From a virus, in IMG/VR virus record IMGVR_UViG_3300024359_000009, positions 3,232 through 67,231 of that record: a DNA stretch of 64,000 nt; one strand, 5' to 3'. The stretch's first letter is position 1, and each line of letters starts with the position of its first letter. Both the position numbers and the translations under genes were made by a program. The notes below the pieces were generated by a model. The model saw only the letters and a list, made by a program, of their open reading frames with translations. It had not been told where the DNA came from and did not search any database. Shown here in pieces: positions 1,011 through 48,480 of this stretch.

Positions 1011-3002
1011 ATGGAAGACGGAGCTTCTCAAGAATTGGAGGGGAAAAAAGAAACAAAAAAAAGCACTACTATACATTTTATCAGCAAAAAACCAAGAACA
1101 TTCGATAGTCTAAATATTAAGCATAATCAAATTTCAGCAAAAGAGATTTTAGACTACTGTTTATCAAAAAAGATTCTTGCTGTTGATACAGAGACTGAAG
1201 GATTGGATTTCCTTACGAAACGTGTAATTATGTTTCAAATAGGAGATGCAGAAAATCAGTTTGTTATTGACACACGAGATTACGACATATCGTTTCTTAG
1301 GCCAGTGTTAGAATCAAGAACTATAAAGAAATTATTACACAATGTAAAGTTTGACTATAAATTCATCAAGAAATGTTACAATATAACTCTTGAGAATATT
1401 TATGATACTATGATTAGTGAAAGAATTTTGAGTACAGGGAAGGATATATTACCTGGTTATCACAGTTTAGAGCAAGTATGTTTGAGAAGATTAGGGAAAC
1501 AGCTGGATAAATCCACTCGAAACCAGTTTATCAATTTGGGTGGTCAACCATTCACAGATAAGCAAATAGTTTATGGCGCAGAAGATGTTGAAAATCTTAT
1601 TAAAATAGCTAAAAGCCAAATAGAAGAGGTCAATAAGTATGGTTTAGGACCTGTTTTAGAGCTTGAAAATGAGGTGTCTTTAGCTTTTTCTGATATAGAA
1701 TACAATGGGATCGGTCTTGACGTTGAGAAGTGGAAATTAATAGCTGATGACTCTAAAATAGAATTGGACAATGCATTGAAAGACCTGAATGAAGAAATCT
1801 TTAAAGATTCTTTATTTACAAGGTATATAAATAAAAATGTTCAAATAGATATGTTTGCAGAGACTGCTGAATATGAGGTACTTATGAACTGGTCAAGTCC
1901 CCTCCAAGTTCTTACTTTGTTTAAATTGATAGTTCCTACCTTAGAAAATGTAAATGCAAAAGAACTCTACACAATTAAAAATAGACACGTTATAATTAAA
2001 AAATATATACGTTATAAAGAAGTAGAGAAGAAATCAAATGCATACGGTATGGCTTTCCTTAAATATTTAGGAGCTGATAATCGTATTCATACATCATTTA
2101 ACCAAATCCTAAACACTGGTAGAGTAAGTAGTCGTGATCCAAATATGCAACAAATTCCTGCTGATAATAAGTATAGGAATTGTTTTATTTCTGGGTACGA
2201 TGATTGGGTTTTTGTATCAAGTGATTACAGTTCTCAAGAATTATGTATTATAGCCTATGGTTCTAAAGATCCAGTATGGCTAAAAGCATTATCTGAAGGA
2301 AAAGACTTGCATTCTGTTTGTGCAGAGTTGGTATATGGTAAAATTTGGGAAGATGCCCAAGATCCAGATTGTGATTTTTACAAGATAGATCCAGTTACCA
2401 ATGAGATGCAAAGGTCAAAATGTAATTGTAAAGAGCATAAATCTTTACGAAATGGTGTTAAAACCATAAATTTCGGATTAGCTTATGGTATGTCCAAGTT
2501 TAAGCTGGCTGACACTCTTCTGATAGAAATAGAAGAAGCAGCTATGTTAATTGAAAAGTATTTCTCTTCTTTTCCAAGTATTAAAAAATTCTTAGATTCT
2601 TTGGGAACCTATGGGTTGGATAATGGTTTCATTAAAACTTTTGCACCTTATAAAAGAATTAGGTGGTTTAGTAAATGGAAACCAAATATAAGAAAAGATA
2701 GAGATTTATTTAAGGAAGTAGGTAGTATAGAAAGAGCATCAAAGAATACTCCAATACAAGGTTCTGGTGCTGATATGTGTAAGTATGCATTGACTTTAGT
2801 ACGAGATTACATAGCAGAGCATAATGTGCCTGTTAAAATTGTAATGGCTGTACATGATCAAATCGATACTATAGTGCATAAAGATTATGCAGAACAATGG
2901 AAAGAGGAGTTTACAGCTCTGATGAAGAAATCTACGCTACCTATAATTCCAAATGGATTATTAGAAGCTGATACTAATATCAGTGATTTTTGGGAAAAAT
3001 AA
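1011..3002 (+). CDS. polA: family A DNA polymerase (3'-5' exonuclease plus polymerase, no 5'-3' exonuclease domain)
   Basis: Exo I AVDTET, Exo II HNVKFD, Exo III YGAED; TGRVSSRDPNMQQIP; motif A DYSSQE; motif B RNGVKTINFGLAYG; motif C VHDQI. Confidence 0.95.
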   Translation: MEDGASQELEGKKETKKSTTIHFISKKPRTFDSLNIKHNQISAKEILDYCLSKKILAVDTETEGLDFLTKRVIMFQIGDAENQFVIDTRDYDISFLRPVLESRTIKKLLHNVKFDYKFIKKCYNITLENIYDTMISERILSTGKDILPGYHSLEQVCLRRLGKQLDKSTRNQFINLGGQPFTDKQIVYGAEDVENLIKIAKSQIEEVNKYGLGPVLELENEVSLAFSDIEYNGIGLDVEKWKLIADDSKIELDNALKDLNEEIFKDSLFTRYINKNVQIDMFAETAEYEVLMNWSSPLQVLTLFKLIVPTLENVNAKELYTIKNRHVIIKKYIRYKEVEKKSNAYGMAFLKYLGADNRIHTSFNQILNTGRVSSRDPNMQQIPADNKYRNCFISGYDDWVFVSSDYSSQELCIIAYGSKDPVWLKALSEGKDLHSVCAELVYGKIWEDAQDPDCDFYKIDPVTNEMQRSKCNCKEHKSLRNGVKTINFGLAYGMSKFKLADTLLIEIEEAAMLIEKYFSSFPSIKKFLDSLGTYGLDNGFIKTFAPYKRIRWFSKWKPNIRKDRDLFKEVGSIERASKNTPIQGSGADMCKYALTLVRDYIAEHNVPVKIVMAVHDQIDTIVHKDYAEQWKEEFTALMKKSTLPIIPNGLLEADTNISDFWEK

Positions 3003-30200: not shown

Positions 30201-31477
30201 GCATCATCAGCATATTTAGCCATAGAATTACCGTCAGCTAACGCTGATAAAAGATTATCCTTACCTCCTCCAGCAATCGCTTTTTTACCTTCTCCTTCAG
30301 CTATAAAGTTTATTTGTTCTTCTCCAAATTCTTGTACACCCTCAGCACCTAATGTTCTTAGTCCTGCTTTTGAAAATAATTTTTTAGGGGCCTCAAGTAA
30401 AGTTCTTGATGCTAATGTTTGAGCACCAGCACGAGTAAACATACTTGCACCAGTTAAATTCAAAGCAATATTTGCTCTGTTAATGGCAATTATATTAGAA
30501 GCGTCATCAGCAGCTTTGGCTTTAGCTTCTTCTTCAGTAGCACCTAAAGAAATATAATGATCTAAATTTTCTTTGTAAACTGTTGAAGCTGACATTACTG
30601 CTTCTGTTTGATTCAGAGCTGTAGCTGTAGCTAATGTGGATGTTCCTTTAGCTAATTTTTGTACCCACTTAGCTGCGTTAGCTGTTAATCCAGCAGCACC
30701 AGCACCAAACGTAGCACCTACTACAGCACCTTGCGCTGCAAAAGCTCCTATTGAAGCAACTAAAGAAGAACCGTTTTCAAACCACCATGCTGGATCTCCA
30801 ATATCAAAAGCCTCTCCTGGCTTTTCTCTGTAAATAGCAAAAGAGTCATTCATTGCATTTTTATACTCTTCCATTTTATCTGAAATAGGATTACCTACTT
30901 CATCATCTTGATTGTAGTAATCTTCTATATCAACCATAGAAGCCATACCACCTACAAAATCAAATATAGCACCACCCACAGCTCTAACAACCGCATTACC
31001 AGCTTGCTCAACTCCACTTTGTCCTTGAGCTCTACGTAAATCTAACTCTTGAGTACCAACCCAAGGTTTAACTTGGTCCATATAATCAGAGTAAGCATCT
31101 ACATCTATGTCATATACTTTATTTGCGTTTAATCTCGCACCAGCACCTTCTTCGTATTTTCCTGGATTCTTTTTATAATCTTCAAGCTGTGCTCCTCTAA
31201 GAGGTAGACCTGTTGAAGGATCTAAAACAGTTTCATTTAAAGCCTCAGAAATAGTTTTTTTCTTTTCTTTTTCACGCTTTGCTGGTCCAGGACCAGGATT
31301 AGCAGGAACACTTTTTTGAAATTGTTCTTCTTGTTGTTTACGAAGTCTTTCTAATTCTTGTTCTGAATAAGCTACACCAGTAGCAGGATTGATTGCGCCA
31401 GCCCCATAGCCACCGTCTGTATTGAACATTATATTTTCTTCCATGATAATACTTTTTACTAAAAACAGGTAGATCAA
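18203..31477 (-). CDS. giant virion RNA polymerase polyprotein (crAss/phi14:2-type two-barrel RNAP; probable start ATG 31444)
   Basis: GYRIPTQ at 21411-21430; GSDYDVDK with catalytic DxDxD at 21293-21307; DAQGY and LDNAKDP motifs; HEAFH zincin; Gly/Ala-rich hydrophobic N-terminal helices. Confidence 0.9.
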   Translation of the reverse strand: MIYLFLVKSIIMEENIMFNTDGGYGAGAINPATGVAYSEQELERLRKQQEEQFQKSVPANPGPGPAKREKEKKKTISEALNETVLDPSTGLPLRGAQLEDYKKNPGKYEEGAGARLNANKVYDIDVDAYSDYMDQVKPWVGTQELDLRRAQGQSGVEQAGNAVVRAVGGAIFDFVGGMASMVDIEDYYNQDDEVGNPISDKMEEYKNAMNDSFAIYREKPGEAFDIGDPAWWFENGSSLVASIGAFAAQGAVVGATFGAGAAGLTANAAKWVQKLAKGTSTLATATALNQTEAVMSASTVYKENLDHYISLGATEEEAKAKAADDASNIIAINRANIALNLTGASMFTRAGAQTLASRTLLEAPKKLFSKAGLRTLGAEGVQEFGEEQINFIAEGEGKKAIAGGGKDNLLSALADGNSMAKYADDASFWEAGTLGAIGGIGQGAGGMAYRKASGKYKQELEQFEKQEARIAEIDNMAKKSSAKNGTLSSVFLSAADFKTKAEAQKAAEKELEKAEAEGDTKKIEQAQAKVSAAADNMLWSQVKNSLQDGTTESLLAAYKHMASIPEKEAIDERGMPSNYKERAESAIEFIEETEDAYNKFSFASPKLQSSAVVNRATALNYKKYTKEAKENIQEVEKAMNEIRSGLSPSYASMSDEELALENDAFAFALKLKRDNEKEADENSKIQNELDSEYIQMVKKSEGKRAAKNKADDIRKNRFERRREDAFRERIQDEIIDNGLTRDGIQSLINSVQKSNHPEKNSRLDVLYDFLEKVSKNETIALDNKRKQAQTEVLQHIDTQAESLKQELGLTPKAAKKVAEAAKKQPGKKVEAPTNEKEEAPTQNAPSEGQQSLNEILGVPTVSLSEDGKITVQETEPTATAEDLGEKVPNKTLENLSPERKAELSDGTKMLLEEANTVKEITDNLDLLGDDIKSSEAAILNERVQELQSFEQALKDKEAALEQRDKELEEAGVDPDAMLDTKDIRIVQLSEKEGDNSAKYGLENTPVLDLDSEVETTEEEDIEEEAEAKMQPQLQAMPVDAVTTVDTQFISLQIDNPETPTSNNIEMGVREKGFFVKATDENGNPIPKLATKYVRKTEDNLTEAEKAVAIPLYWYPVKLDETTGMPIIRQGFGMDKFRYDKSSAPVPLLTKGMKGEPIYIVPADLNETPVLESEVLAFEDWVKPENAKKDQVVYLKKGQYVYPQGHEKAGQEIFPDAGEHNQPITVHLTPDGPPVQKIAADSVEELSDLRTNFDVYSDESGAVPVMIHKKGKGFVINQKQPDGSSAKNPIGVLGAFGKDFTLGVGSNGTVIYTENGVEKEYEAKVEDGRVYAMVTSANGDKVPVRLETKKVSEKDADHIIDNILLNSELEGNDKAAIIKSIVGTIANHNIEDSENANGPLFFANNREIKLRVGGQILSIGFYDFGDKGINNLRQALNGERFLATVYQSSTGNPEYNYGEPLLNDDGKPKQEYFDPKSPKTLTPEMLEALQDFRQVIKDAIMSKNYDVSKKNIVSNTATIDHTTGETYNSYSEYLEGKNILTTDVTGLSTGQKFTNSKAQLIPVNKKIQIVTPSVEVTSDIDSLDVAKAKTKADIKRRRQVELLSIENSVELTPENQSNYINDQLAYRSLSKEGFINAAETGVLSQKGYNNNPKYSSIYFGNGTKGFNVVMDFAEKAGGDPYIAVVPRANLKTAGLKHNASTTNSNTTKPVFTNDVVYLIGDYKNEKIYVKEHTEIDKINAKYDAELTALEQQDNAVKNESNTDGEATPANIEIVSETDNVIDSDPTQNEIDNNTQELEPEKELDGTETINTEDIDPNDEDLVFRKVESKFEENPLNILTDTEISWIIDTFGEEHLAPMAQAKFILIKGEKAYGAYSNGMVFLARDGKKGTAYHEAFHLVLDLASTSKEKEVLMKAAKKVFGEINKRSQKYQDLKTTYPNKNEAELAEVYYEEEMAEAFRTFMESEESKGKIKKTKVGIAIQKFFDRIRKAILAMRIKGSQMLNRDSVYLSNSIMNKAFLNIKNGNVTFSERAKSIMDKQYFNPNDFKLRRKKGFTEEFKHDMVSTMRYALMRKVIPKMIADGRTTATSITEMITSNKYVEDVRTAINETRDILLKQGTTFLNSKNPTANKTLSGRYLEKSLQDSEWNDKFEGGIVSDPGFGSLLIDSLKLHGSNVKRQKTTDGFTEYDAKKVENEVLEFGEEVVEEGENESTSIERIHNSHFALSDPKKTLASEVKIALSFVPTPTIVDKKTGKTISNGRSKFTMLPTFIDFHKVYSMLTSKLADVDISEMEDKLQELSAWNPMISSVYTEYQNWSPELKNKFKAVMSKTQLKFMTVVSGENMEWKLIETNRTGVLKQILEGWARNKNAKNLFVEEQGQTATVNKEVLQKMADSYETLSNEKLQENPVDYYKAINEVFSFIGIEFDAPVLQMLATKYSPKDFNKSYVQGKFKFIMNELGYDVKTKKIKSGKGVDPYVSTQNKGQLKTITKIAELVKDVSTDLYTGSFVNGEGKMVYSINLNSYISKFKQDVSTVENIEKMWEDSYSKDVFYNPDGNLGVHGSLFFELLKNNPKMREEFDIIELDTAKDKEKGKGTSFDQMIEKQAWLTRMAMFANNGNRKSTGYSYISMGTKADKGRSLYMKVPTLQNAKAPAEMSISNGIGVKYVKEAAKHVLKRNVMQEAARIRLTQEQLFGPEALRDDQLVENLHYKGTNPDGTLNRKAANGLKFMSIPDLNFSTYGLFNTDGSLKEISTETNYAKVNKALDAFLDREVLRGKNRMVKAGVLFEKDGIYYTDMVKVDSFGGTSVTIDGEQVNKIDDQVSEFLMNELVWRTEINKFQMGDLALYKTKTADISNDAEFNGVKGEFLSVVTDAGKRSYQTITPGIDHVIDSMYGKPKQMSMAIMKDIETSMSVDSAVNIAENLVGESNWAKPYLTEDGMKKSTSSLSTEKKDAIKIVRMYRKGSNSADAQGYTTLEAHRHSMMSRGDWTMEGEHSHEKAYNEYWKKEVPVSSWPDWVNKLALKPLKTFYWGKQYDVALQRVSFKQIKHSTVPLYAGMTKQVPSLDKLRQRMEATGEFSNMDPIDVVNMESAVKVGKSGVNTYSQDGSYLSNMTLQTIYSENERSPFILPTDKGTDPKDGSQFVKLITSNMDPGAVYNTVEGMEAMTTEQIKSVSNSVYVEKIKRASKKLREDLGYDKYLANGKSNSRENQLEFLKKVQKLLIEQIESRDLPDNYSIALEIQQLESGDYSFAMPLSFPAYAKKFEIALASLYKSRVLTQRLPGDAAVQVAEYGDDTENRLKYYSFENGDMKAAECAISYKEAEKLGILEYADENGIIDHDKMPDKSVLEIIGYRIPTQGKSSMLPLIVKRILPPTSKGQIMLPHEIVTQTGSDYDVDKMFLYYPALQNKKHSIIWGHPGLGKSTLRKNRQDVLDFDTDFKPKVAELLGLPEGKRSSVSLNKWRKEDPKNEALFEKAMKKVWGQAKKQAKKDGSTLMVSDMMFLKDFQSDFDKVITTNKNTFIKRAKERGDSVEGLESWKENIDKVVNNVSKDKIVSTEKYLSDIFDSLNLKQGIQKVPFQNSLKKMVEGTKSADALSDKQIENILFATRFGILTSKHNNKEVVNPLDSATYPNKMEEYGDYNLLEKTSTFNFSSGYTDMHLEMVNKDAKALVGIFSSHSVGQAIAQDVSIATSTPVYIKTVDQDGKEIGTKDNQANDLSGIYGFDGVLRSIYTNENQNASLDNAKDPITGSLNINTFTANVVAYLNRLGYNNDIAVDLINQPIIRELTNANNLSTDGAYITTLAAEVAERFDLPKVGRTGKELSYDAAENNRVTITPENLKAVLKATKSLDEMSEDELMYQKQVLLDFVQYHKAGTDLAKTNKMMSPDRFTQMSGLVDIEIWKNNKTYVEEGRGAITVNNLYTEDAAVPRIKAYYDEAILGAENIISEFMPYNSKVFSIIKDSIAYSTHQKDGYIGDKDLLNKINSDIFSYVMFGKDSPVQKYMMSDSDQDVIKRKLFDIKRSTAKQIDILKKKYNLQNNTFLSMVSSDNFNSRNSLQMLKFNNTASYSGETKSSFVDAFEELVYYPEKVLKSSYPKFNTLSAVEKQKAVDALSLNMRRIIQYGIVTSGFQNGPNTFIDLFPVRLWKDLTLNEDGQSLGSLSKYIADQLEAFENVANEHLTAYAVDTKNDDALGDISGQYNMVDQIIRNRFEADKLLKSVSLRANKLDVTKEAESITGKKKFPHTFGVSSDNAANLFNIQRKSGDLVKAELKSPAGFPYYIKMWDTENKKWRLYKRQSQIVDAIKGYAEYQVISPLGEEHKFFEVYPTKENPDSIHPDNNDFKVVEPKKTTPKKSKETADDSLFEDEYNPEQELPGIDFEQYSGSSDVSLNSMSEPGGINIIMPKSEGDIVNKKIDDGELGLSCSK

Positions 31478-31482
31478 AAATA
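31475..31482 (-). promoter_or_regulatory. putative -7 promoter box (TATTTTTG) upstream of the RNAP gene
   Basis: TAnnTTTG match about 30 nt upstream of ATG 31444. Confidence 0.4.
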
Positions 31483-31532
31483 CAAAATATCCTTTAATCT
31501 ATAACTGTTTTTAGTAAAGTATAATCTAAAAG

Positions 31533-32360
31533 TTAATAACTACCAGTATAAACTTTTTCCAAAACATCTCCCATTTCTGCTAATCTCTCTGAATAAGGAG
31601 TAAGAGCCACTCCGTTTTTACTTGTTGCTGATTCAGCTATCATAGGTTCTCCTTGGGAGTTATAAACTATTATACCAATATGGTCAATACCATACTTTCT
31701 ATTTTTATCAAACCCATGGTCTCCAGTATCAAATGCTATCACCATTCCTTCTTTTAAATCTGATTTTTTAATAGATTTCCAATCTGTATAAGTTTTATGG
31801 TCTTTAGAATTAACCCATAATCCTTGAGAACTTAAATCATCTGTTGGAACTGATTTATTTAAGTCTGTAAGTACTTTATAAACAAACCCCGAACAGTCTA
31901 TACTATTCCCACTTTTATCTCCAAGATTATATGTTTTATCTCGCATAGAAGCAACAGAACGAACTATAGCTTTACTTGTACTATTTGATGGTAGTTGATT
32001 AAAAGCACTCACAATTTCATCTCCTTTTAAAGATGTTCCAGAAGGCTTTTCATTTTGCTCCAGAGTTTGCTGTGCGTATGCTTCAGCTTTAATATCATTC
32101 AAAGTTTTTGGAGTTGCTCCATTTTTTTCTACCATATTTGATTTAACTACATTTGATTTACCTTTTAAGTTATCAGTAGTCAATTCTTTTGCAGGAGTAA
32201 CAGGAGCAGGTTGCTGATAAGCTTGCTGTTTTATTTGGTCTAATGTAATTCCAATATTTTGCTTTGGAATTACAGGTTGTAATGGTTTTTGTGGTGCTGG
32301 TGGCTCTTGTTCTTGTATGCTTGAAGTAGTAAGAACAGGAGGAGTATTAGGCAATGGCAC
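31533..32360 (-). CDS. NlpC/P60 peptidoglycan hydrolase, probably the -1 frameshift extension of the upstream cargo gene
   Basis: IDCSGFV and DHIGI catalytic motifs; Pro/Gln-rich linker at the N-terminus; frame stays open upstream to the A9 run at 32410-32418. Confidence 0.85.
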   Translation of the reverse strand: MPLPNTPPVLTTSSIQEQEPPAPQKPLQPVIPKQNIGITLDQIKQQAYQQPAPVTPAKELTTDNLKGKSNVVKSNMVEKNGATPKTLNDIKAEAYAQQTLEQNEKPSGTSLKGDEIVSAFNQLPSNSTSKAIVRSVASMRDKTYNLGDKSGNSIDCSGFVYKVLTDLNKSVPTDDLSSQGLWVNSKDHKTYTDWKSIKKSDLKEGMVIAFDTGDHGFDKNRKYGIDHIGIIVYNSQGEPMIAESATSKNGVALTPYSERLAEMGDVLEKVYTGSY

Positions 32361-32392
32361 AGCCCCTCCTCCTTGTTCATTACTTGGGATAT

Positions 32393-35338
32393 TTACTGAG
32401 TTATTGGACTTTTTTTTTCAACCTCCTCTTGTTCAAATATAGATGGATCATATTGTATTCCTAACATATCCATTAAATTTCTATATGTTTGATTCGGAAC
32501 GTTTACTGCTTTATATGCATTTTTATATTCTTTATCAATAGATTGTAGTAGTATTTTACTATCATCTCTACTATCCACATCTACAGTAAATCTTTTAGCT
32601 TCTAAAGCTTTACCAGTCAACATACCATCTGTCATTGTTAAAAATAACTGACCTTCAGGAGAGTTAGCATCTATAGGAGGTAATTTTGTTGTTTTAGGAT
32701 CTATGTTACTTATAAAAGTATGTAAATCTGGTAACGTTTGTTCCAACCCATTATAAAAAGTTGTAGATGGAGATAAATTTTCACCACTATACTGATAATT
32801 TTGAGATCCAGTTTTTTTCATTTGGATGGTATTATCAACACCTTGTAATATAAAACGATTATTTACAGGTATTTTAGTAAGTTGTGGAATATTTATCTCT
32901 GTTGAATAATTATTTTTAGTATCTGATATTTTTAAATTAGCGTCTGCATTTTCAAAAATCGCATCAGTTGTAACCGTATTATTTAATCTATCTTTTACAA
33001 AATCAACTGCTCCAGATTTATCTGTTACATTAGCTTGATTCAAGTAGTTACCTAAATGCGTATATAATGAGCCTGAAGCATCTCTACTTGAGTACATGGT
33101 GTAAGAAGTAGGTACTTTTGTAGCTTTTCCAGTATCATCGTATGTTGTTAAAGTACCTTTTACTATTATTGGAATATACTCTTCACCTCCTCCTAAATCT
33201 AATTCATCCATTCCTACATGAGAAAACTCTTCAGCTACAAAACCTGTTAATAATTCTGGGTTCTCTGTAGCAGATATAGCCTCTCCTGTTGTTGTATTAT
33301 AAACAACAGCATTTTTTTGATTAATTATATCTGTTGCTGATGATAATGCATTTGCGTAAGATTCGTTAGCCATTTTCTTTTGTGGTTCAGAAGCTAATCC
33401 TTTTTCTATTTCAGGAATAGCTAAAAATCCAGTAGAATATGCAGGTGTTTCGACACCTACTTTTTCGATATGGTTATTGTACGCATCGTAATACTCTTGT
33501 TTCATATCTTCTGCCATAGCATCAAAAACATCATCAAACTCTTGACCATGTGATGAACCTCCTCCTTTATGTTTATAAAAATAACCACCTAATTTTATTA
33601 ACGCTTGTTCTTGATTTTCAGGCCACTTTAAGGCATCTGTTACTTTTTTTACTGCTTCAGGATCTTTAGTGGCTAAAGCTTTTACAAAAGTAGCTCTATC
33701 TATTCCTGCTCTTTCAAAAAACTCTGGTTTTGCCTCAGCACTATATCCTTGATCTATTACATAACTAAGTCTTTTAGCAAATTGCACAAACTCTTTATTA
33801 TCCATATTAACACCAGAAGCTTCATTTATAGCTTGTCTTACATACTCTGTGCGTACATAGTCTTTTACATTTGAAATATCTGATGTAACTTCCCCTAACT
33901 CAAGATCGTTATCTTTAATGATATTTCCTTTAGCATCTTTTTGAAACTCTACATTTTTATAAAAATCGATAGTATTTGTCTTACGATCCCACTGTCCAGT
34001 TCCTTCTAATTGACGTTTTATTTTAACAGCTTCTACTCCTTCATTGTTATTTTGAATAGTATTATCTTCCCAATTATTTCTTGTTTGTACAAGTGTATTT
34101 AATTTATTTATAGCAGCTTGTTGCTCTATCTGATACTGTTTATACTGAGATGCAGTAATTGGAGGGGTAACATTATTTCTAACTGCTTCTTCGTATGCTT
34201 TTATCTCTGCAGAATGCTCTTGGGTTTGTGCTGCATAAGATCCTTCCAGTTGTGCTACTTCTTCTGGAGAAGTATATCTTTTAGAATTAGTATTGTTAAC
34301 ACCAGTTACTTGATCAACACTTGTCTCAATTGCTGGAGGAACAACTACTTCTTCAACTTCATCAGCTTTCTTTCTTTTATATGCTATGGTCGCAGCAAGT
34401 TGTGCATCGTTTTGTGTATGCGCACCTATTTCAGTATATGCAGCGTAATCAACTGCAGCTGCGATACCTTTATCAATATAAGCTTCTTTATCAAAAACGG
34501 TTCCACCGTTTTGTTCTCTTAATTCTTTAATTAAATAATTAGCCCCGTCTTCACTATGACCTTGACTCATTAATTCTTTCTTTTTAATAATCTCAGCTCC
34601 CCTATCTTTTTGTTCAAAGAAAGAAGTAAAAGCAGGAGAAGAGTTTACATAGTTTTTAGCAATACGTGTAGCTTCTTCAGCAGTAACTTCTGAATTGTCT
34701 TCCCATCTAAGAACACCAAAATTATCAGCTTGCATTATACGCCCATCCTCTGTATAGATAGGTGTCTTGTTTGCTTTGATACCTTTTAAATACTCTTGAA
34801 CATTTTTAGCCATTTCAGGAGTTTTCTTAGCCATTACATTTTCCCATTTATTAAACGATCTATAATCATCTACTTCTCCGATACCAATTTGATTTTTAGC
34901 TTCTATATCAGCCATAGCTGCTGCATATACTTCTGGATCTAAACTCGCTTTTTCTTCTTCAATAGCTTTTTTATTTGCTTCATAACCTTTAGAAAAACTT
35001 CTAATATCTTGTAACGCAACATCATTAGCTGCTTGAGAACCAAGACCTATCATTTTATTATACTTCTCCGTGGTCGTCAGCTTTTTATCATTTAGAACCC
35101 TTTCTTGTTCAGTGTTGTAATAATTAGCTCTTTGTTCTAATTTACGAGCATTAAAATCATTTGTAGCACGAATGTCTTGATATTGTTTATCAAGCAGAGC
35201 CTGCTGTTTAGCCAACTTTTCAGTTTGACCTGTTCGCCATTTTTTGTTTTCCAATAAAGCACCAAAAGGAATTGGATTCGCTTCTGGCATTAATGCAGCT
35301 CCTGGAGCTAAAAATTGATATTGTGGTGTATATCCCAT
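32393..35338 (-). CDS. virion cargo/ejection protein
   Basis: 981 aa, helical, no Cys seen; N-terminal NPIPF motif; lies between the first cargo gene and the RNAP gene. Confidence 0.65.
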   Translation of the reverse strand: MGYTPQYQFLAPGAALMPEANPIPFGALLENKKWRTGQTEKLAKQQALLDKQYQDIRATNDFNARKLEQRANYYNTEQERVLNDKKLTTTEKYNKMIGLGSQAANDVALQDIRSFSKGYEANKKAIEEEKASLDPEVYAAAMADIEAKNQIGIGEVDDYRSFNKWENVMAKKTPEMAKNVQEYLKGIKANKTPIYTEDGRIMQADNFGVLRWEDNSEVTAEEATRIAKNYVNSSPAFTSFFEQKDRGAEIIKKKELMSQGHSEDGANYLIKELREQNGGTVFDKEAYIDKGIAAAVDYAAYTEIGAHTQNDAQLAATIAYKRKKADEVEEVVVPPAIETSVDQVTGVNNTNSKRYTSPEEVAQLEGSYAAQTQEHSAEIKAYEEAVRNNVTPPITASQYKQYQIEQQAAINKLNTLVQTRNNWEDNTIQNNNEGVEAVKIKRQLEGTGQWDRKTNTIDFYKNVEFQKDAKGNIIKDNDLELGEVTSDISNVKDYVRTEYVRQAINEASGVNMDNKEFVQFAKRLSYVIDQGYSAEAKPEFFERAGIDRATFVKALATKDPEAVKKVTDALKWPENQEQALIKLGGYFYKHKGGGSSHGQEFDDVFDAMAEDMKQEYYDAYNNHIEKVGVETPAYSTGFLAIPEIEKGLASEPQKKMANESYANALSSATDIINQKNAVVYNTTTGEAISATENPELLTGFVAEEFSHVGMDELDLGGGEEYIPIIVKGTLTTYDDTGKATKVPTSYTMYSSRDASGSLYTHLGNYLNQANVTDKSGAVDFVKDRLNNTVTTDAIFENADANLKISDTKNNYSTEINIPQLTKIPVNNRFILQGVDNTIQMKKTGSQNYQYSGENLSPSTTFYNGLEQTLPDLHTFISNIDPKTTKLPPIDANSPEGQLFLTMTDGMLTGKALEAKRFTVDVDSRDDSKILLQSIDKEYKNAYKAVNVPNQTYRNLMDMLGIQYDPSIFEQEEVEKKSPITQ
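32410..32418 (-). other. candidate -1 frameshift / slippage site (GAA AAA AAA AGT, A9)
   Basis: A_AAA_AAA heptamer 5 codons before the stop; the -1 frame reads KSNNSVNIPSNEQGGGAVPLPNTP straight into the NlpC/P60 ORF. Confidence 0.65.
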
Positions 35339-38979: not shown

Positions 38980-41900
38980 TTATCTTGCTGAGAACCTGTA
39001 AAAAGTTTTCAGGTAGTGTAATAAGAATCTTCTATCATTTATATTATCAAATTCAAAATCGGCAATCATAATCTTATCACGAAGCCTATCTTTAAACTCT
39101 CTGTTTTTATCTAAATTAACAGGATTAAAAATATCTATATCTACTGGAGTAGCTCCAAATGAGTTCAATACTGCGTTTCTTGCAATAGCTGATTGCCACT
39201 CTCTGTCTACTCTTCGTATATTATTTTTTGGAACAATACTTACCCAGTCTGTATTTTGATACGTAGTATTACAACGAATCCTACTAAATGTTTCTTGGTC
39301 TATCTGAATAGGATTAGAATCATTAGAAAATACCTCTGTGTAGTATCCAAAGTTATCAAACACTTTAGTAATACCTTTACCATCATTAATGATAAGTTGT
39401 AATGTAGAATTAAAAATGTTACCATAGAACTCACCGTACTTTCCTTTATTATGTCTATACAGAGCCTCCGAATTTATTGGGTTTGGAGATAGTATATTCA
39501 CACCATCGTTTAAGTATATCGTAGGAGCGTGATCGTAGAATCCTGTGAATACTTCATACGCCTCGTTATATACAATAGTCTCTTCTACAATCTCCATGAT
39601 TTGTACATCGAATAATAAAGCTGTTTCACCTAAGTATTTCCCGTAAAGGTCTTGATCTATTATACCAGTAGCATCTACCGCACCATTGAATATTGCATCA
39701 GATCCGATAAATGAACCAACAGACATACGTATGTATACAAAATCCGTATCAGAAGTTGTTTCTGATATTAAAATACTTTGGTCAACACCTTCTACATTAA
39801 TTTCAACATAGTTACCTATGGATATAGATAATATACCTAAACAAGTCTTCGAAACTTTTAATGCATTTGTCATGATATTATCACTTGGAAAAGCCTGGAA
39901 TGTGTAACGAGCAGATGCTTTACATAAAGAAATAGGCTGTCTGTTTAAGAATGTAAACCAAACTTCATTAAAACGTGTTGACCAAGTAGAATGTATACCC
40001 TTATTAATCAATGGGTTATCATTAGTTAAAAGATTACCAACCAGTTTATCAAAGAACCATGGATTCATACCTGCTTGCATTGAAACTGGTACTAATTGTT
40101 TTCCTTTAATCGAATACATTTGTTTATGGTATGAGTCTATAAACATTAAATTCGTATTCGTAGAGATTGGAACCCATTGATGGAAACATCCTATATCAGT
40201 AGAGATGTATTCGAAATCATGCAGTACATCTCCAAAACCAATTTGTAGACTTCCTGCAGGGCCGCCTGTAATTGATCCCCTTGGATTTATTAATAAGTAC
40301 CCACATCCGTGATCTTGGAAAAAGAATATCATATCATTATGATTGATAAGTCTATTTACAGGTCCTAAACTTCCTTCCACATCTTTGTATAAGAAAGCGT
40401 CAAACTGTCTCCAGTTATCGATTACCTCACCATTAATCTTTCCTCGTGAGGCATAGATTCTATTATCAAATGTTTCCAGTAAAGGAACTCCAACAGGTCT
40501 ACCTATAAAGGATATAAAGTCGTCTTCCCTACTATACAGAGACTCTGCTTCGTAGGTATCATGTGCATAAGTTATATCACTTGCAGGAGGGTAACTACCG
40601 TCAGGTTTTGCTTTGTTCAAGAAGTGTCTTCCGTTTCTTAATGTAGTATTGAACGTACTAACTAAAGGAACTACAACTCCATCTCTGGATGTATATGTGA
40701 CAGGATCAATCGGCTCTTTACCATCCACACGAGTAAAATCGTATTGTGCGTGATAAACATCTCCACCAAAAACACTGAATGTATTTAACGCTGATGAACC
40801 TGATTCTTTCTGAATGAACCCTCCAGTACTCTGGTACACGTTATTAGCTCTCGCTGCTTGAGTGTTACCACCGTATTGGTCTAATAATTCTCTTTCATAG
40901 GTTACCAACATAGGTCGCCCATTTAATCCTCCACTCTGTGTAGATGTATTTCCAGGAAGAAATAATTCTACTCCTCCTCCTAATGTAACAAATAGACATA
41001 AACCACCATCTACCTGTTCTTCACTATTTGACATATCTGCGGTTGGAGGCGTACTGTTCGTAAACTGTACGGTAGGAGATAGTGTTGGTATAGCTGATAA
41101 TACTGCTCCTGGTTGAATCTCTCTTGTAAACTCTAATGGTATTGTTTTCTTACCATTACTTCTTACTTGATCTCCATCTGTAGGGTCTCCATAACCATTT
41201 TCAGTTCCTGGGTGTATTACAATCTTCGTTGGTTCAGAAACACCACAATTCAACATAGTATTGTTGATAGTTAAATCCTCTTCTATAATCTCTGTAAATG
41301 TACCGTCCACACGTATACGATCTCCTAACGAACTTCCAACCGTATTAAAGAATTGTAACTCTGGGCTATAAATAACCAAACTCTTCTTAGCGTCTGCTGG
41401 ATATAAAGTAAGATCATCATAATCAGGATAAGCATCTTTTCTTCCTTCTACCATTGGTCCAGAGACATTCCACCTTAATAAATTTCCTCCCTTTCTTGGG
41501 AACAAGTATAAGTTATCATCACTTTCTACTTGGCATAGTTGATGAGCGATTCCCTGAGCAAGTTTAGTTCTATCCGATACTTCCCGTTTTACTCTTACTA
41601 TTTCGTACCCACTTATGCTGTCTAAAAGGTTAGCGGGAATTTCTATATCAAACTCTAATCCAAGTTGATTTAATTCTACTCTGTCCCCTAAAGAATCGGA
41701 AACAGATTTCAACATATCAGCACCACCTACATAAGGACCACCAGCAATAGTTTCTCCCCAAGGGTAGTTACCATAAGCTCGTAGATTTCTACGCATTTCC
41801 CATCTTTCTGGAAATTTAATATCACCGATCCAGTTTACAAATCCTGGATTCCCTGCTAAATCATATAGTACTATTCCAAATCTATATACTTCTCCAGGAG

Positions 41901-43770
41901 AATACCCTCTAAAGATTACATTAACGAAAGGACTCTTATGATTCAGAGGTGTAGAGATGACTGGATACTTTTCATCATTCGTTCCAAACTCATATACAGT
42001 ACTCTGTTTTCTTGACTCTAAGAGTGGTGCAGCACTGTTCATCATATTTGCAGGATCATAAAAGTATCCTTCAGTATTTGCACCAGTTATTTCGGATTGA
42101 GTTATGAACTTATATTTAACATATGGTCCTTCCCCACCAAGAGTAACACCATCAGTCTGCCATTTAAAAGGTAGGAAATTACTATTCCAATCTACTTTAT
42201 TATAAGGATTGATAGCGTCTCTTACTACAGAGGATACACTGACATCTTCTGGATCTTCGTACCCCCAATCTGCATCAGCAGTATTCAACCCAGGTACATA
42301 ACTTTTAATACTACTTAACTCTCCTGTTACTGAGTAAGAGTTACCATTATTATATGCTGGGTTACCACTTATGTTATTGTCCACCAAAGAGTTACCAAAA
42401 CGGTATGCTCTTGCGTGAAACTTCAAAGTATCATTTTTAGGTGCAGAGATATTCCCTACTATAAGTCTATTGTCTTTGTAACTGAGTGTTTTTGCTTTTT
42501 CAAAAGGAACACCAAATATCTTATACTCTGTATCAGACAAACTAAAAGAACTTTCCTCTCCTGTATGTGTAATGACAATTGAGTTAGAAGAAGGTATTTC
42601 CAATGACTCAAAGACATTAATCTCTGGAGTAGACTCAGCTGCCCCATAGTATAATGATATTAATTCTATAGTATCGTAAGTACTATCAATATCTTTAATA
42701 GATACAGATACACTCTTAGTGGTAACAGTTGAAGGATTTGTTCCAGAGTATTCTCCCAATTGACTCCATTCTGTTCCTGACTCACTATTAAGTAATACAT
42801 TGATAAGTCTACTTGCTGGAGACACTTTAGATTGTGCTCCTGTAGAACTTGACAATCTATATGCATATTGATAGATACCTGCTTTCAAAGTACCGCCCGA
42901 ATTAATTGAATTTAATACTGGTCTTGAGAAATCGATTGAAGGAGTAAGACTTAGAAATGCAGGATCGACACCTAAACTTGTACTTATGGAAGCTACATTT
43001 AAAGCTCTTACATTGTTATGGTTATCTGTGAAATAAGTTCTTTGAATCTCTTCGTTCTCATAACGAGCTACCATCTCGATCGGATGTTCTGTAGAGAATC
43101 CTATGTCATCATGGGTATATCTAATTTCAATACTATATGTATCAAATACTTTGTCGTAAGTTGCTACCCATACTTGCCCATTTCCGCCTTTTTTTGAGGT
43201 ATCATTTGTAGTACAGATTATTAATTGATCTCTTATTTCAGTATATCCTATGATTTGTAAGTCTGTTTGACGAGTCGCAAATTGAGTGCCTATTGTGTAG
43301 TTAGATTGTCCAAGAGAATTCACGGATAGTATAGCTGCATTCTCTGAATAAACAGATACAGAATTTGCTGATGTTCGAACTACTTTGATTCCCATTATAG
43401 ACAAAGCAGATGTAGGATCGTTTGCAACATCCATTACCTGATTAAAATAGTCTTCAAACCCACCAGATATTAATTGGAAAGCCTCTGTTATAACGCCTGC
43501 CGCAGTTTCTACTGTAAAGTTATCAGTTACACCTGCTATTGGTGCAGCTACACCTACAATAGGTGAAACCTTAAACACACTTGGGGATGTAGGGATAGTC
43601 AACTCAAGAGTGTTACCTTTTACATTTGCTAAGGCTCCTCCAGAATCTTCTCCATCATCACTTAGTCTGAAGTTCCGAGCATCTCGATATGACGTAGGTT
43701 TAAGCCTATCCTTACTAATAGATTTATTCATTCCTTCTTCAAAGGAATTTGTCTGCATCTTTCTTCCCAT
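38980..43770 (-). CDS. tail stabilisation / muzzle protein
   Basis: N-terminal NSFEEGMNKSIS...YRDARNFR; YFTDNHNNVRALN; YRFGIVLYD; C-terminal RLRDK; crAss gene order. Confidence 0.8.
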   Translation of the reverse strand: MGRKMQTNSFEEGMNKSISKDRLKPTSYRDARNFRLSDDGEDSGGALANVKGNTLELTIPTSPSVFKVSPIVGVAAPIAGVTDNFTVETAAGVITEAFQLISGGFEDYFNQVMDVANDPTSALSIMGIKVVRTSANSVSVYSENAAILSVNSLGQSNYTIGTQFATRQTDLQIIGYTEIRDQLIICTTNDTSKKGGNGQVWVATYDKVFDTYSIEIRYTHDDIGFSTEHPIEMVARYENEEIQRTYFTDNHNNVRALNVASISTSLGVDPAFLSLTPSIDFSRPVLNSINSGGTLKAGIYQYAYRLSSSTGAQSKVSPASRLINVLLNSESGTEWSQLGEYSGTNPSTVTTKSVSVSIKDIDSTYDTIELISLYYGAAESTPEINVFESLEIPSSNSIVITHTGEESSFSLSDTEYKIFGVPFEKAKTLSYKDNRLIVGNISAPKNDTLKFHARAYRFGNSLVDNNISGNPAYNNGNSYSVTGELSSIKSYVPGLNTADADWGYEDPEDVSVSSVVRDAINPYNKVDWNSNFLPFKWQTDGVTLGGEGPYVKYKFITQSEITGANTEGYFYDPANMMNSAAPLLESRKQSTVYEFGTNDEKYPVISTPLNHKSPFVNVIFRGYSPGEVYRFGIVLYDLAGNPGFVNWIGDIKFPERWEMRRNLRAYGNYPWGETIAGGPYVGGADMLKSVSDSLGDRVELNQLGLEFDIEIPANLLDSISGYEIVRVKREVSDRTKLAQGIAHQLCQVESDDNLYLFPRKGGNLLRWNVSGPMVEGRKDAYPDYDDLTLYPADAKKSLVIYSPELQFFNTVGSSLGDRIRVDGTFTEIIEEDLTINNTMLNCGVSEPTKIVIHPGTENGYGDPTDGDQVRSNGKKTIPLEFTREIQPGAVLSAIPTLSPTVQFTNSTPPTADMSNSEEQVDGGLCLFVTLGGGVELFLPGNTSTQSGGLNGRPMLVTYERELLDQYGGNTQAARANNVYQSTGGFIQKESGSSALNTFSVFGGDVYHAQYDFTRVDGKEPIDPVTYTSRDGVVVPLVSTFNTTLRNGRHFLNKAKPDGSYPPASDITYAHDTYEAESLYSREDDFISFIGRPVGVPLLETFDNRIYASRGKINGEVIDNWRQFDAFLYKDVEGSLGPVNRLINHNDMIFFFQDHGCGYLLINPRGSITGGPAGSLQIGFGDVLHDFEYISTDIGCFHQWVPISTNTNLMFIDSYHKQMYSIKGKQLVPVSMQAGMNPWFFDKLVGNLLTNDNPLINKGIHSTWSTRFNEVWFTFLNRQPISLCKASARYTFQAFPSDNIMTNALKVSKTCLGILSISIGNYVEINVEGVDQSILISETTSDTDFVYIRMSVGSFIGSDAIFNGAVDATGIIDQDLYGKYLGETALLFDVQIMEIVEETIVYNEAYEVFTGFYDHAPTIYLNDGVNILSPNPINSEALYRHNKGKYGEFYGNIFNSTLQLIINDGKGITKVFDNFGYYTEVFSNDSNPIQIDQETFSRIRCNTTYQNTDWVSIVPKNNIRRVDREWQSAIARNAVLNSFGATPVDIDIFNPVNLDKNREFKDRLRDKIMIADFEFDNINDRRFLLHYLKTFYRFSAR

Positions 43771-47254: not shown

Positions 47255-47896
47255 TTAATAATTAAATTTCAAATGTGGTCTTAAATTTTGTCTGCTCAAT
47301 GAAGTTGGTAAAGAACCATCTGAATAGTCAAAACCCCCTTTTTGGTTACTTGCTAAAGTGGAATCTGTGTCCCAAAAAGGATAATTACTTAAGTCGTATG
47401 ATCCTTGATTATTAATCCACATTACAACAACACTATCTGTACCATTATAACAAAAATTATCTGTAAAGTCTAAGTTTTTCCAACCTGAAGAGGCTGTTTG
47501 ATACCAACTGCCGTCTAATACTGTTGTTTCGTCATTTACAATAAGTGAACCATTTGCACCTACTAAGCTTAAATTATTTCCACTACCCAAAGTGTTTATA
47601 GTACCTGGCAAAGTTATTTGAGACGTATGATAAATCTTTATAGTTTGATTAAGCTGTGTTATTCCACTCGGTTCTGTGTATGCTTTAGAAAGCTGTAAGC
47701 CTGTAAATTGCTTTGCGTTACCAAGCTCAAAAGCACTCATTATCCATATACCTAATGAATATCTGTAATAACCACTATAAGGCGTATAAGAATTAACTGA
47801 ACCTGAACCACTCAAAACAGTATAATTAGTTCCAACAATAGGCGCACAGGATTCGACCTGTGCGCTTGATAAAATTCCATGAGTAGATAAAATCAT
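47255..47896 (-). CDS. putative receptor-binding / fibre accessory protein
   Basis: MILSTHGILSS N-terminus; Ser/Thr/Gly/Asn-rich beta-sandwich with FCYNGTDSVVV...RP. Confidence 0.5.
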   Translation of the reverse strand: MILSTHGILSSAQVESCAPIVGTNYTVLSGSGSVNSYTPYSGYYRYSLGIWIMSAFELGNAKQFTGLQLSKAYTEPSGITQLNQTIKIYHTSQITLPGTINTLGSGNNLSLVGANGSLIVNDETTVLDGSWYQTASSGWKNLDFTDNFCYNGTDSVVVMWINNQGSYDLSNYPFWDTDSTLASNQKGGFDYSDGSLPTSLSRQNLRPHLKFNY

Positions 47897-47904
47897 TTTT
47901 TTTT

Positions 47905-48480
47905 TTATTGTAAATTACCACCAAGAGACCAAGTATCTGTGTTGGTTTTTATTAATGTAAATAACGAATACTGCCCCAATGATATAGTCTTATTTAGATA
48001 TGATTCAATAATAACTCCTCCAGTAGGCAAAAATATAGTTTGTCCTGCACCCTTTTGTTTTACTAAAATTTGGGTTCCAATTGGAAAAGCCACCGAGCTA
48101 TTTAATGGTATTACCAAAGTGTTACCACTTCCATTGTTCATTGAAACTAATTTATTAGCATCACTTAAAACAAGTGTATATGACGCACCTGTTTGAGCAT
48201 TTTCAGTAATTAATTTATCAGACTTTACTTCTATAATTTCATCAAGTGCTGCAATTAAATCTGTTTGTGATGATAATGTTCCTGTTATATCTCCCCAAGC
48301 AGTTGAGCTAACATAAGCATCATTAATTACTCCGTCAGCATTTTTATAATAAACAATCTCTGTTGCTAAGTCGTAAAAATAAGTATCATTTGATACACTA
48401 CTCCAATCAGCACTTGAATCTGTCTGCACGGTGTATTTAACACCTGCTGCCATTGTTGTTGTTACCGTAGTTACTGCCAT
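47905..48480 (-). CDS. tail fibre-associated protein
   Basis: WGDITGTLSSQTDL and YTLVLSDANKLV...FPIGTQI...W.LGGNL modules common in phage fibres. Confidence 0.65.
   Translation of the reverse strand: MAVTTVTTTMAAGVKYTVQTDSSADWSSVSNDTYFYDLATEIVYYKNADGVINDAYVSSTAWGDITGTLSSQTDLIAALDEIIEVKSDKLITENAQTGASYTLVLSDANKLVSMNNGSGNTLVIPLNSSVAFPIGTQILVKQKGAGQTIFLPTGGVIIESYLNKTISLGQYSLFTLIKTNTDTWSLGGNLQ

Follow-up and report, generated by a model that had tools for sequence, protein, structure and literature searches.

A nine-adenine run as a candidate recoding site that would append an NlpC/P60 hydrolase to a probable internal virion protein of a marine crAss-like phage

A 64,000-nucleotide (nt) stretch of the IMG/VR record IMGVR_UViG_3300024359_000009 (hereafter the window; the whole record is 67-kb long and rated 70% complete) comes from an uncultured marine crAss-like phage and has a G+C content of 33%. 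On its minus strand, the gene for a 981-amino-acid (aa) protein, P0001, probably an internal or ejected virion protein, contains close to its 3′ end a run of nine adenines (A9) from which a second open reading frame (ORF), coding for a predicted NlpC/P60 peptidoglycan hydrolase, continues in the -1 frame. We propose that recoding at the A9 run makes this ORF a C-terminal extension of the 981-aa protein, a reading to which we give a probability of roughly 0.6. It is favoured by the uniqueness of the run, by the abnormal character of the GTG that would otherwise have to start the hydrolase, by 19 codons ahead of that GTG that resemble coding sequence, by the disordered linker that would join the two parts, and by the existence of larger proteins that carry the same hydrolase in frame. 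The split arrangement is moreover stable, being present on dozens of contigs and among sequence variants, and P0003, a protein 82% identical to P0001, keeps the same EKKSPITQ end at the protein level.

The 981-aa gene ends with the codons GAG GTT GAA AAA AAA AGT CCA ATA ACT CAG TAA (Table 1). Upstream of the run the -1 frame holds many stops of all three kinds, and the 19 codons that precede the GTG can therefore be reached only by a shift at the run. An alternative genetic code was rejected as an explanation because the stops upstream of the run include many besides TGA. A -1 shift anywhere in the 24-nt stretch between the -1 TGA and the 0-frame TAA would produce a fusion, and the A9 run sits in this stretch. 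The predicted fused product would comprise 976 + 292 = 1268 aa, and its tryptic junction peptide would start with SNNSVNIPSNEQGGG. The first ATG, GTG or TTG codon of the -1 frame is the GTG, which opens a 275-aa ORF, and the first ATG lies 75 codons beyond it. The end of the 981-aa gene, the A9 run, the abutting TGA, the open -1 frame and the GTG-only start were all found again as the initial annotation had described them.

Table 1. Features of the junction between the 981-aa gene and the hydrolase ORF, in window coordinates.
Feature	Position	Strand	Remarks
981-aa gene (P0001)	32393..35338	-	probable internal/ejected virion protein; crAss001 C2 position
GAGGAGG (Glu-Glu codons)	32422..32428	-	3 nt upstream of the run; probably incidental
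TGA of the -1 frame	32418..32420	-	abuts the run on its 5′ side, last A common to the run; closes the -1 frame upstream
A9 run	32410..32418	-	proposed slippage site; holds A_AAA_AAA in the 0 frame
TAA stop of the 0 frame	32393..32395	-	15 nt past the run; gives the short form its SPITQ tail
-1 frame ORF	31533..32417	-	proposed trans-frame extension; 294 codons plus stop
19 codons from the run to the GTG	32361..32417	-	+11.3 bits
Pro/Gln/Gly-rich linker	32118..32417	-	-1 ORF residues 1-100; predicted disordered
Hairpin	32328..32384	-	-27.2 kcal/mol, z = -4.64, 0/200 shuffles; Shine-Dalgarno-like motif in stem, GTG in apical loop
Shine-Dalgarno-like AAGGAGGAGGGG	32363..32374	-	Gln-Gly-Gly-Gly in the -1 frame; paired in the hairpin stem
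GTG	32358..32360	-	only candidate start before Met95
Internal ATG (Met95 of the -1 ORF)	32133..32135	-	possible start of a free 200-aa hydrolase
NlpC/P60 catalytic domain	31587..31937	-	DCSGF Cys and DHIGI His; residues 142-258 of the 275-aa ORF

Codon usage was scored as log-odds after training on the genes of the phage itself. The -1 ORF obtained +240.6 bits, compared to -360 and -456 bits in the other two frames. The 19 codons that lead from the run to the GTG also resemble translated sequence: their score falls inside the distribution of in-frame windows (mean 14.7 bits, standard deviation 6.7) and was matched by 0.008% of 38076 off-frame windows and 0.56% of 5000 shuffles. AlphaFold2 assigned a predicted local distance difference test (pLDDT) value below 50 to residues 1-100 of the -1 ORF and a confident fold to residues 101-294. 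The catalytic domain matches PF00877 with 31.4 bits (cut-off 23, E 2e-7), and with 32.1 bits in a six-frame search of the record. Its DCSGF cysteine and DHIGI histidine align with those of the solved hydrolase 7cfl and are invariant in an 8-sequence alignment (C175 and H246). With a Pfam score above the cut-off and both catalytic residues in place, the DCSGFV/DHIGI peptidase recognised earlier is thus borne out as an NlpC/P60 domain, and the -1 ORF is predicted to have peptidoglycan hydrolase activity. A short helix motif (TL-D-IK, then AY-QQ) also occurs twice in the linker region, at 32052-32120 and 32204-32252 on the minus strand, and AlphaFold2 placed helices at -1 ORF residues 59-66 and 106-122. 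The second copy is conserved across all fused and stand-alone relatives (E112, A115 and Q116 are invariant), and the motif may be a docking or wall-binding helix of the hydrolase module.

Long A-runs are rare in the genes of this phage. In the coding sense the window contains 1240 A3, 565 A4, 245 A5, 83 A6 and 36 A7 runs, followed by a single A8 and a single A9. The decay of about 0.44-fold per step extrapolates to about 28 runs of at least eight, compared to two observed, indicating that the genome avoids long A-runs inside genes. The A9 at the junction is the only coding homopolymer of at least nine in the window and the only coding A-run of such length in 62 kb. A rough estimate of the chance that such a run would coincide with the junction gives about 4e-4 for this junction alone, rising to about 5e-3 when the calculation allows for a dozen -1-phased junctions. 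The slippery heptamer on which the initial annotation relied, A_AAA_AAA, is indeed present and followed by an open -1 frame, but it is not special: the genes of the window contain 14 in-frame A_AAA_AAA positions, that of the junction included. It is the length of the run, rather than the heptamer, that is unusual. The only other coding A-run longer than seven, the A8, lies on the plus strand at 1055-1062, 44 nt into the DNA polymerase gene (1011-3002). A long A-run can also serve as a leader directly before a start codon in this phage: a T11 on the plus strand at 47896-47906, which corresponds to A's on the coding strand, abuts the ATG of the ORF 47255-47896.

The GTG stands apart from the other start codons of the window. 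ATG opens 39 of the 42 listed ORFs, and two of the other three have an in-frame ATG close downstream. ATG 3010 is the more likely start of the ORF that the list opens at GTG 2983, and ATG 31444 that of the 4424-aa ORF opened at TTG 31477; both of these ATG codons have A/T-rich leaders. Counting these two, 41 genes start with ATG and the hydrolase alone would start with GTG. The 20-nt leaders of the 41 genes average 80% A+T with a minimum of 60%, and the region from -30 to +30 folds at -4.0 kcal/mol on average (standard deviation 2.7, minimum -12.7). The leader of the hydrolase GTG has 45% A+T with nine G's, and the corresponding region folds at -23.1 kcal/mol, beyond the range of the 41 starts on both counts. 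No GGAGG was seen in the 25-nt leaders of the other listed ORFs. AGGAGG occurs 23 times on the minus strand, compared to about 9 expected, mostly inside genes, and this abundance fits a host that does not read the motif. A/T-rich leaders such as these are characteristic of Bacteroidia, which, according to PMC7797042, PMC6847099, PMC9976891, PMC13000453 and PMC10798248, ignore the Shine-Dalgarno sequence and tune initiation by mRNA structure and upstream A's.

The composite protein that recoding would create has a precedent in proteins whose in-frame domains include a member of the same hydrolase subfamily (51-57% identity). In P0033 (1379 aa) the hydrolase is C-terminal and follows a long low-complexity linker, in P0030 (1908 aa) the domain is internal, and P0031 and P0032, of about 640 aa, also carry it. 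The P0030 and P0033 architectures serve as a precedent; hhalign probabilities of 0.1-0.2% with the P0001 family profile give no support to homology of the N-terminal parts, and hence none to orthologous fusions. P0030, P0031 and P0032 have in common a C-terminal module of about 380 residues after the hydrolase, for which there is no Pfam match, and about 144 N-terminal residues are common to P0030 and P0033 (blastp E 1e-7). When hmmsearch and blastp were applied to the same question of homology to P0001, the sole match, between P0030 and P0021 (blastp E 0.001 in an 8-sequence database), was too weak to use.

Besides P0003, the relatives of P0001 comprise five distant proteins of 872-1141 aa with other C-termini and three further short or partial matches; none of the P0001 relatives found contains the hydrolase domain. 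A search with P0021 led to a distant relative with a complete 81-kb genome, G001 (locus L007), in which a muzzle gene, a 1906-aa gene, the P0001 homolog (also the P0021 homolog) and a giant ORF directly after it follow one another. No homology was detected between the 1906-aa protein of this genome and P0030. Among GenBank phages, no match was obtained by blastn, nor by tblastn with the hydrolase, P0001 or P0020, and scans of IMG/VR with the hydrolase, P0001, alignment A2, P0018, P0020 and P0030 confirmed no relative. The metagenome scan matched only a 5-kb contig (L002) that ends after residue 311 of the cargo gene. Three matches to the hydrolase alignment A3 were discarded as unrelated, namely a high-G+C tape-measure-type gene of IMG/VR with a 30%-identical domain (L003) and two loci in Micavibrio genomes (L004 and L005).

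If recoding takes place, most transcripts or ribosomes would read GAA AAA AAA AGT through to the TAA and give the 981-aa short form, and a fraction would shift to the -1 frame within the A9 run. The shift could arise in transcription, if RNA polymerase copies the T9 template with one extra A and so produces an A10 mRNA, or in translation, if two Lys-tRNAs slip back by one base. Both routes would lead to the same 1268 aa: residues 1-976 followed by a lysine, about 100 residues of disordered linker and the NlpC/P60 domain. An abundant internal protein would in this way carry a few copies of the enzyme into the particle, the hairpin over the Shine-Dalgarno-like motif and the GTG would keep internal initiation low, and the packaged enzyme would presumably help to cross the cell wall at infection. 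The occurrence of slippage and its rate, the packaging of the long form and its role at the wall during infection are what we infer from this arrangement.

Several observations weigh against recoding at the run, and we set them out with the explanations that they would favour. AGGAGG lies 4-7 nt ahead of the GTG, where it makes a textbook ribosome-binding site, with a chance of roughly 0.004 that one of the 23 sites would fall there. The hairpin that holds the motif begins 8 nt past the TAA, a position that fits classical translational coupling. The hydrolase could thus be an independent gene translated from GTG 32360 via AGGAGG, perhaps coupled to upstream termination that would open the hairpin, with the A9 run a coincidence; the free 275-aa protein might then be packaged, or act, via its disordered N-terminal region. 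The 275-aa protein is called on 77 contigs (52 + 25), and the hydrolase relative P0029 has its own Met before its Pro-rich region. However, the GTG falls outside the range of the 41 other genes, all with ATG and A/T-rich, weakly folded leaders, in both A+T content and folding. Bacteroidia ribosomes ignore the Shine-Dalgarno sequence, as far as PMC10798248 and related abstracts tell; we infer solely from the leaders that the host is of this type. Judging from the geometry, a ribosome that terminates at the upstream stop would come as far as the base of the stem and leave the GGAGG pairs untouched. An independent gene would also leave both the unique A9 run and the coding-like 19 codons unexplained. 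We consider this account possible, though improbable, and give packaging or action of a free 275-aa protein the same limited credence.

Two relatives of the hydrolase, P0028 (209 aa) and P0029 (316 aa), have been called as proteins in their own right, each with its own Met, and these too speak for a separate enzyme. Met1 of P0028, which is 57% identical, aligns with Met95 of the -1 ORF, and this Met is invariant in a 3-sequence alignment. The Met95 codon has an A/T-rich, unstructured leader (A+T 0.80, local folding -5.0 kcal/mol). Moreover, a six-frame search of the 67-kb record for Phage_lysozyme, Amidase_2, SLT and Peptidase_M23 domains returned none, leaving NlpC/P60 as the only wall hydrolase found. 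The functional enzyme might accordingly be a free protein of about 200 aa started at Met95, for example an endolysin, and the linker the remnant of an older fusion. Set against this, the 75 codons from the GTG to Met95 score 73.4 bits and remain open in a genome of 33% G+C, so that the Pro/Gln-rich region appears to be coding and a start at Met95 alone would be insufficient. Without translation of the linker, some 260 nt of noncoding sequence would separate the 981-aa gene from Met95, and none of the other listed gene junctions resembles this. By start context, Met95 scores -2.5, which puts it in the lowest tenth of real starts, and, with the record 70% complete, a lysis cassette may lie elsewhere. 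This explanation seems to us very unlikely as a replacement for the fusion. A free Met95 form can nonetheless coexist with the fusion, just as coupling at the GTG and suppression by the hairpin may both hold.

The run itself could be in error. The initial annotation had allowed for a true A10, that is, for a single 1268-aa ORF split by an assembly or sequencing mistake, and homopolymers are error-prone on some platforms. The assemblies do not show A10, and the split form is present on dozens of JGI, ENA and Logan contigs. The exact 981-aa protein was found on 40 contigs, and 8 further contigs carry four near-identical full-length 981-aa variants; of the 275-aa product, two filed forms that differ in their first letter alone were recorded, on 52 and 25 contigs, respectively. 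On three short ENA contigs the cargo gene end and the hydrolase are called separately, with the tails EKKSPITQ or EKKSQITQ. The sequencing data consisted of 24 runs, all seawater metagenomes or metatranscriptomes in the form of assembled contigs, from which rare variants are dropped. In two of the three RNA runs, both Illumina, contigs (X19 record 8 and X20 record 11) cross the run gap-free with A9. As far as the assemblies tell, the A9 is genuine, and an artefact seems to us extremely improbable. The DNA run X1 has a coverage hole over 31300-33142, which is evidence neither way. The SQITQ tail occurs in P0005 in place of SPITQ and, if due to a single C-to-A change, would be silent in the -1 frame; since the contig family of P0005 is rich in odd substitutions, the change was given no weight.

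The run could also vary at the DNA level. In this account the gene was originally fused and then lost one A (A10 to A9), and the site either toggles between A9 and A10 by replication slippage or is on the way to losing the hydrolase. Homopolymer length changes easily and fused architectures exist elsewhere. In addition, the RNA contig X21 record 15 stops exactly at the last A of the run (32410), and there is no X21 cover over 32330-32409; this end might be a graph branch caused by differing run length or might reflect low depth, a weak hint from a single low-depth run. On the other side, no fused product was found among the proteins retrieved and all five full-length forms have 981 aa (48 contigs). 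Every variant seen has an intact hydrolase ORF, and the short-form end is retained in the P0003 lineage, which argues for maintenance rather than decay. A switch or decay in the DNA thus appears to have little probability.

The lack of a fused gene among the proteins found is also a point against recoding: no P0001-hydrolase fusion appeared in a protein search of 539-1717 aa, nor among 1.84 billion representatives of all lengths. The RNA contigs show A9 only, and the runs, all in contig form, gave no direct sign of A10 transcripts. Contigs cannot show minority A10 variants, so that these data neither show nor exclude slippage. The distant relative G001 adds two points on the same side. An ORF of 146 aa (L011:17107-17547, minus strand) contains an A10 (Lys-Lys-Lys), 113 nt ahead of the stop, and shows no obvious change of frame, which indicates that long A-runs are possible in genes of such phages without recoding. 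The coding A-runs of this genome drop less steeply (28 A7, 6 A8, no A9, one A10). Furthermore, this genome has an NlpC/P60 domain neither at the junction of the P0001 homolog nor elsewhere, and the hydrolase junction therefore appears specific to the clade of the window. As regards conservation among relatives, P0003 keeps the same protein end, and the only distant relative readable as DNA lacks the hydrolase.

The last points on this side concern the ribosome. In dnaX, a Shine-Dalgarno element spaced 10-14 nt from the slippery site stimulates -1 shifts, and the GAGGAGG near the A9 run is too close. We found no stimulatory structure 5-9 nt past the run: the 63 nt from the run fold at -7 kcal/mol (z = +1.65), no better than shuffles. 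Rfam identified no frameshift element, giving only a chance-level match elsewhere in the stretch. The hairpin begins 25 nt past the run and is too far away for a classical stimulator. In E. coli, A_AAA_AAA shifts less readily than A_AAA_AAG, according to PMC5009743. The same source reports that runs of nine A or T cause efficient slippage by bacterial RNA polymerase, that AAA_AAA_AAA is strongly avoided in E. coli genes, and that ribosomes also slip or slide on such A-runs; the A9 run thus reaches the length of about nine or more A or T given there for transcriptional slippage. Recoding at the A-run as initially proposed remains the best-supported reading. Since no structure lies at 5-9 nt and it is the run length, not the heptamer, that is unusual, we lean to transcriptional rather than ribosomal slippage.

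The assignment of the phage and of the 981-aa protein depends on gene content and order. The muzzle gene (38980-43770) matches PF25731 crAss_MUZ with E 1.6e-144, and matches were obtained to PHROG families of the terminase large subunit, portal and major head protein (E 1e-113 to 1e-156), which we take to be crAss-specific. The replication module is on the plus strand. On the minus strand, the muzzle gene is followed by ORFs of 1194 aa, 981 aa, 275 aa (the hydrolase), 4424 aa and 1314 aa, which places the P0001 gene two genes downstream of the muzzle gene. All 24 minus-strand ORFs listed, comprising the structural and cargo module, stop with TAA, and the TGA (4) and TAG (1) stops are confined to the 18 plus-strand ORFs.

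In crAss001, gp45 (C1) and gp46 (C2) sit between gp44 and the RNA-polymerase-associated gp47, according to PMC10172136. The 1194-aa and 981-aa genes likewise sit between the muzzle gene and the giant ORF, and the gene order of G001 also puts the P0001 family at the cargo C2 position. P0001 has neither a Pfam nor a PHROG match, and hhalign comparison of its 7-sequence family profile with crAss001 gp46 and gp45 gave probabilities of 0.18% and 0.07%, respectively, both below 1%. The designation "cargo protein" given to it initially thus agrees with gene position, but similarity to gp45 or gp46 is not detectable; P0001 is probably a cargo-type virion protein, internal or ejected, with synteny as the whole basis. 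A term search of the main text of PMC10172136 returned neither "hydrolase" nor "lysozyme".

The features of this junction can be compared with several known systems. T7 gp16 is an ejected internal protein with a wall-cutting domain that is an in-frame part of the protein in a podovirus particle; here as well the wall-degrading activity would come from inside a podovirus particle, with the difference that it would be on some copies only and would be added by recoding. E. coli dnaX likewise combines a heptamer of Lys codons with a -1 shift (A_AAA_AAG there). In E. coli dnaX, however, the shifted frame ends at once to give a shorter product and a hairpin lies a few nt downstream, whereas here the shift would lengthen the protein, the heptamer is A_AAA_AAA, the hairpin is 25 nt off and the GAGGAGG is 3 nt upstream of the run. 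PMC5009743 lists C-terminal extensions of virion proteins by frameshift in T7 and T3 (gene 10A/10B), Lactobacillus phage A2 and Listeria phages A118, A500 and PSA, in which slippage likewise occurs near the 3′ end of a structural gene and both the short and the long form may enter the particle. Most of these extensions add Ig-like or decoration domains to capsid or tail-tube proteins, while the one proposed here would be an enzyme on an internal, probably ejected protein, behind a bare A9 run with no stimulator close on its 3′ side. Closer in mechanism are Thermus thermophilus dnaX and Shigella spa13 with related type III secretion genes, where nine A or T suffice to give two products in a set ratio with no RNA stimulator, according to the same source. 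Those are cellular genes, and the present site is in a phage late module.

Recoded virion extensions and slippage on 9-mers are thus already known, and what would be new is a wall-hydrolase extension on a crAss-like internal protein. No wall hydrolase appended by recoding to a Crassvirales internal protein was found in the papers searched. If recoding operates as we propose, gene callers mis-annotate the hydrolase as a small stand-alone GTG gene, and the virion of this phage group would hold an unannotated 1268-aa protein. A low-copy wall-degrading activity in the crAss-like particle, riding on an internal protein, would then be explained, and an enzyme-carrying extension of an ejected protein would join the known uses of recoding in phage structural genes. 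Recoding would also operate in hosts that apparently initiate without Shine-Dalgarno pairing. More tentatively, we raise the possibility that marine crAss-like phages load a few copies of a wall enzyme by transcriptional slippage at a bare A9 run closing the cargo gene at the C2 position, with polymerase error setting the ratio and a hairpin silencing the internal start, and that the device, with a wall hydrolase one base out of frame after the slippery end of a cargo gene, recurs across the order with different enzymes; if so, it would amount to a general, unannotated rule for the packaging of low-copy enzymes.

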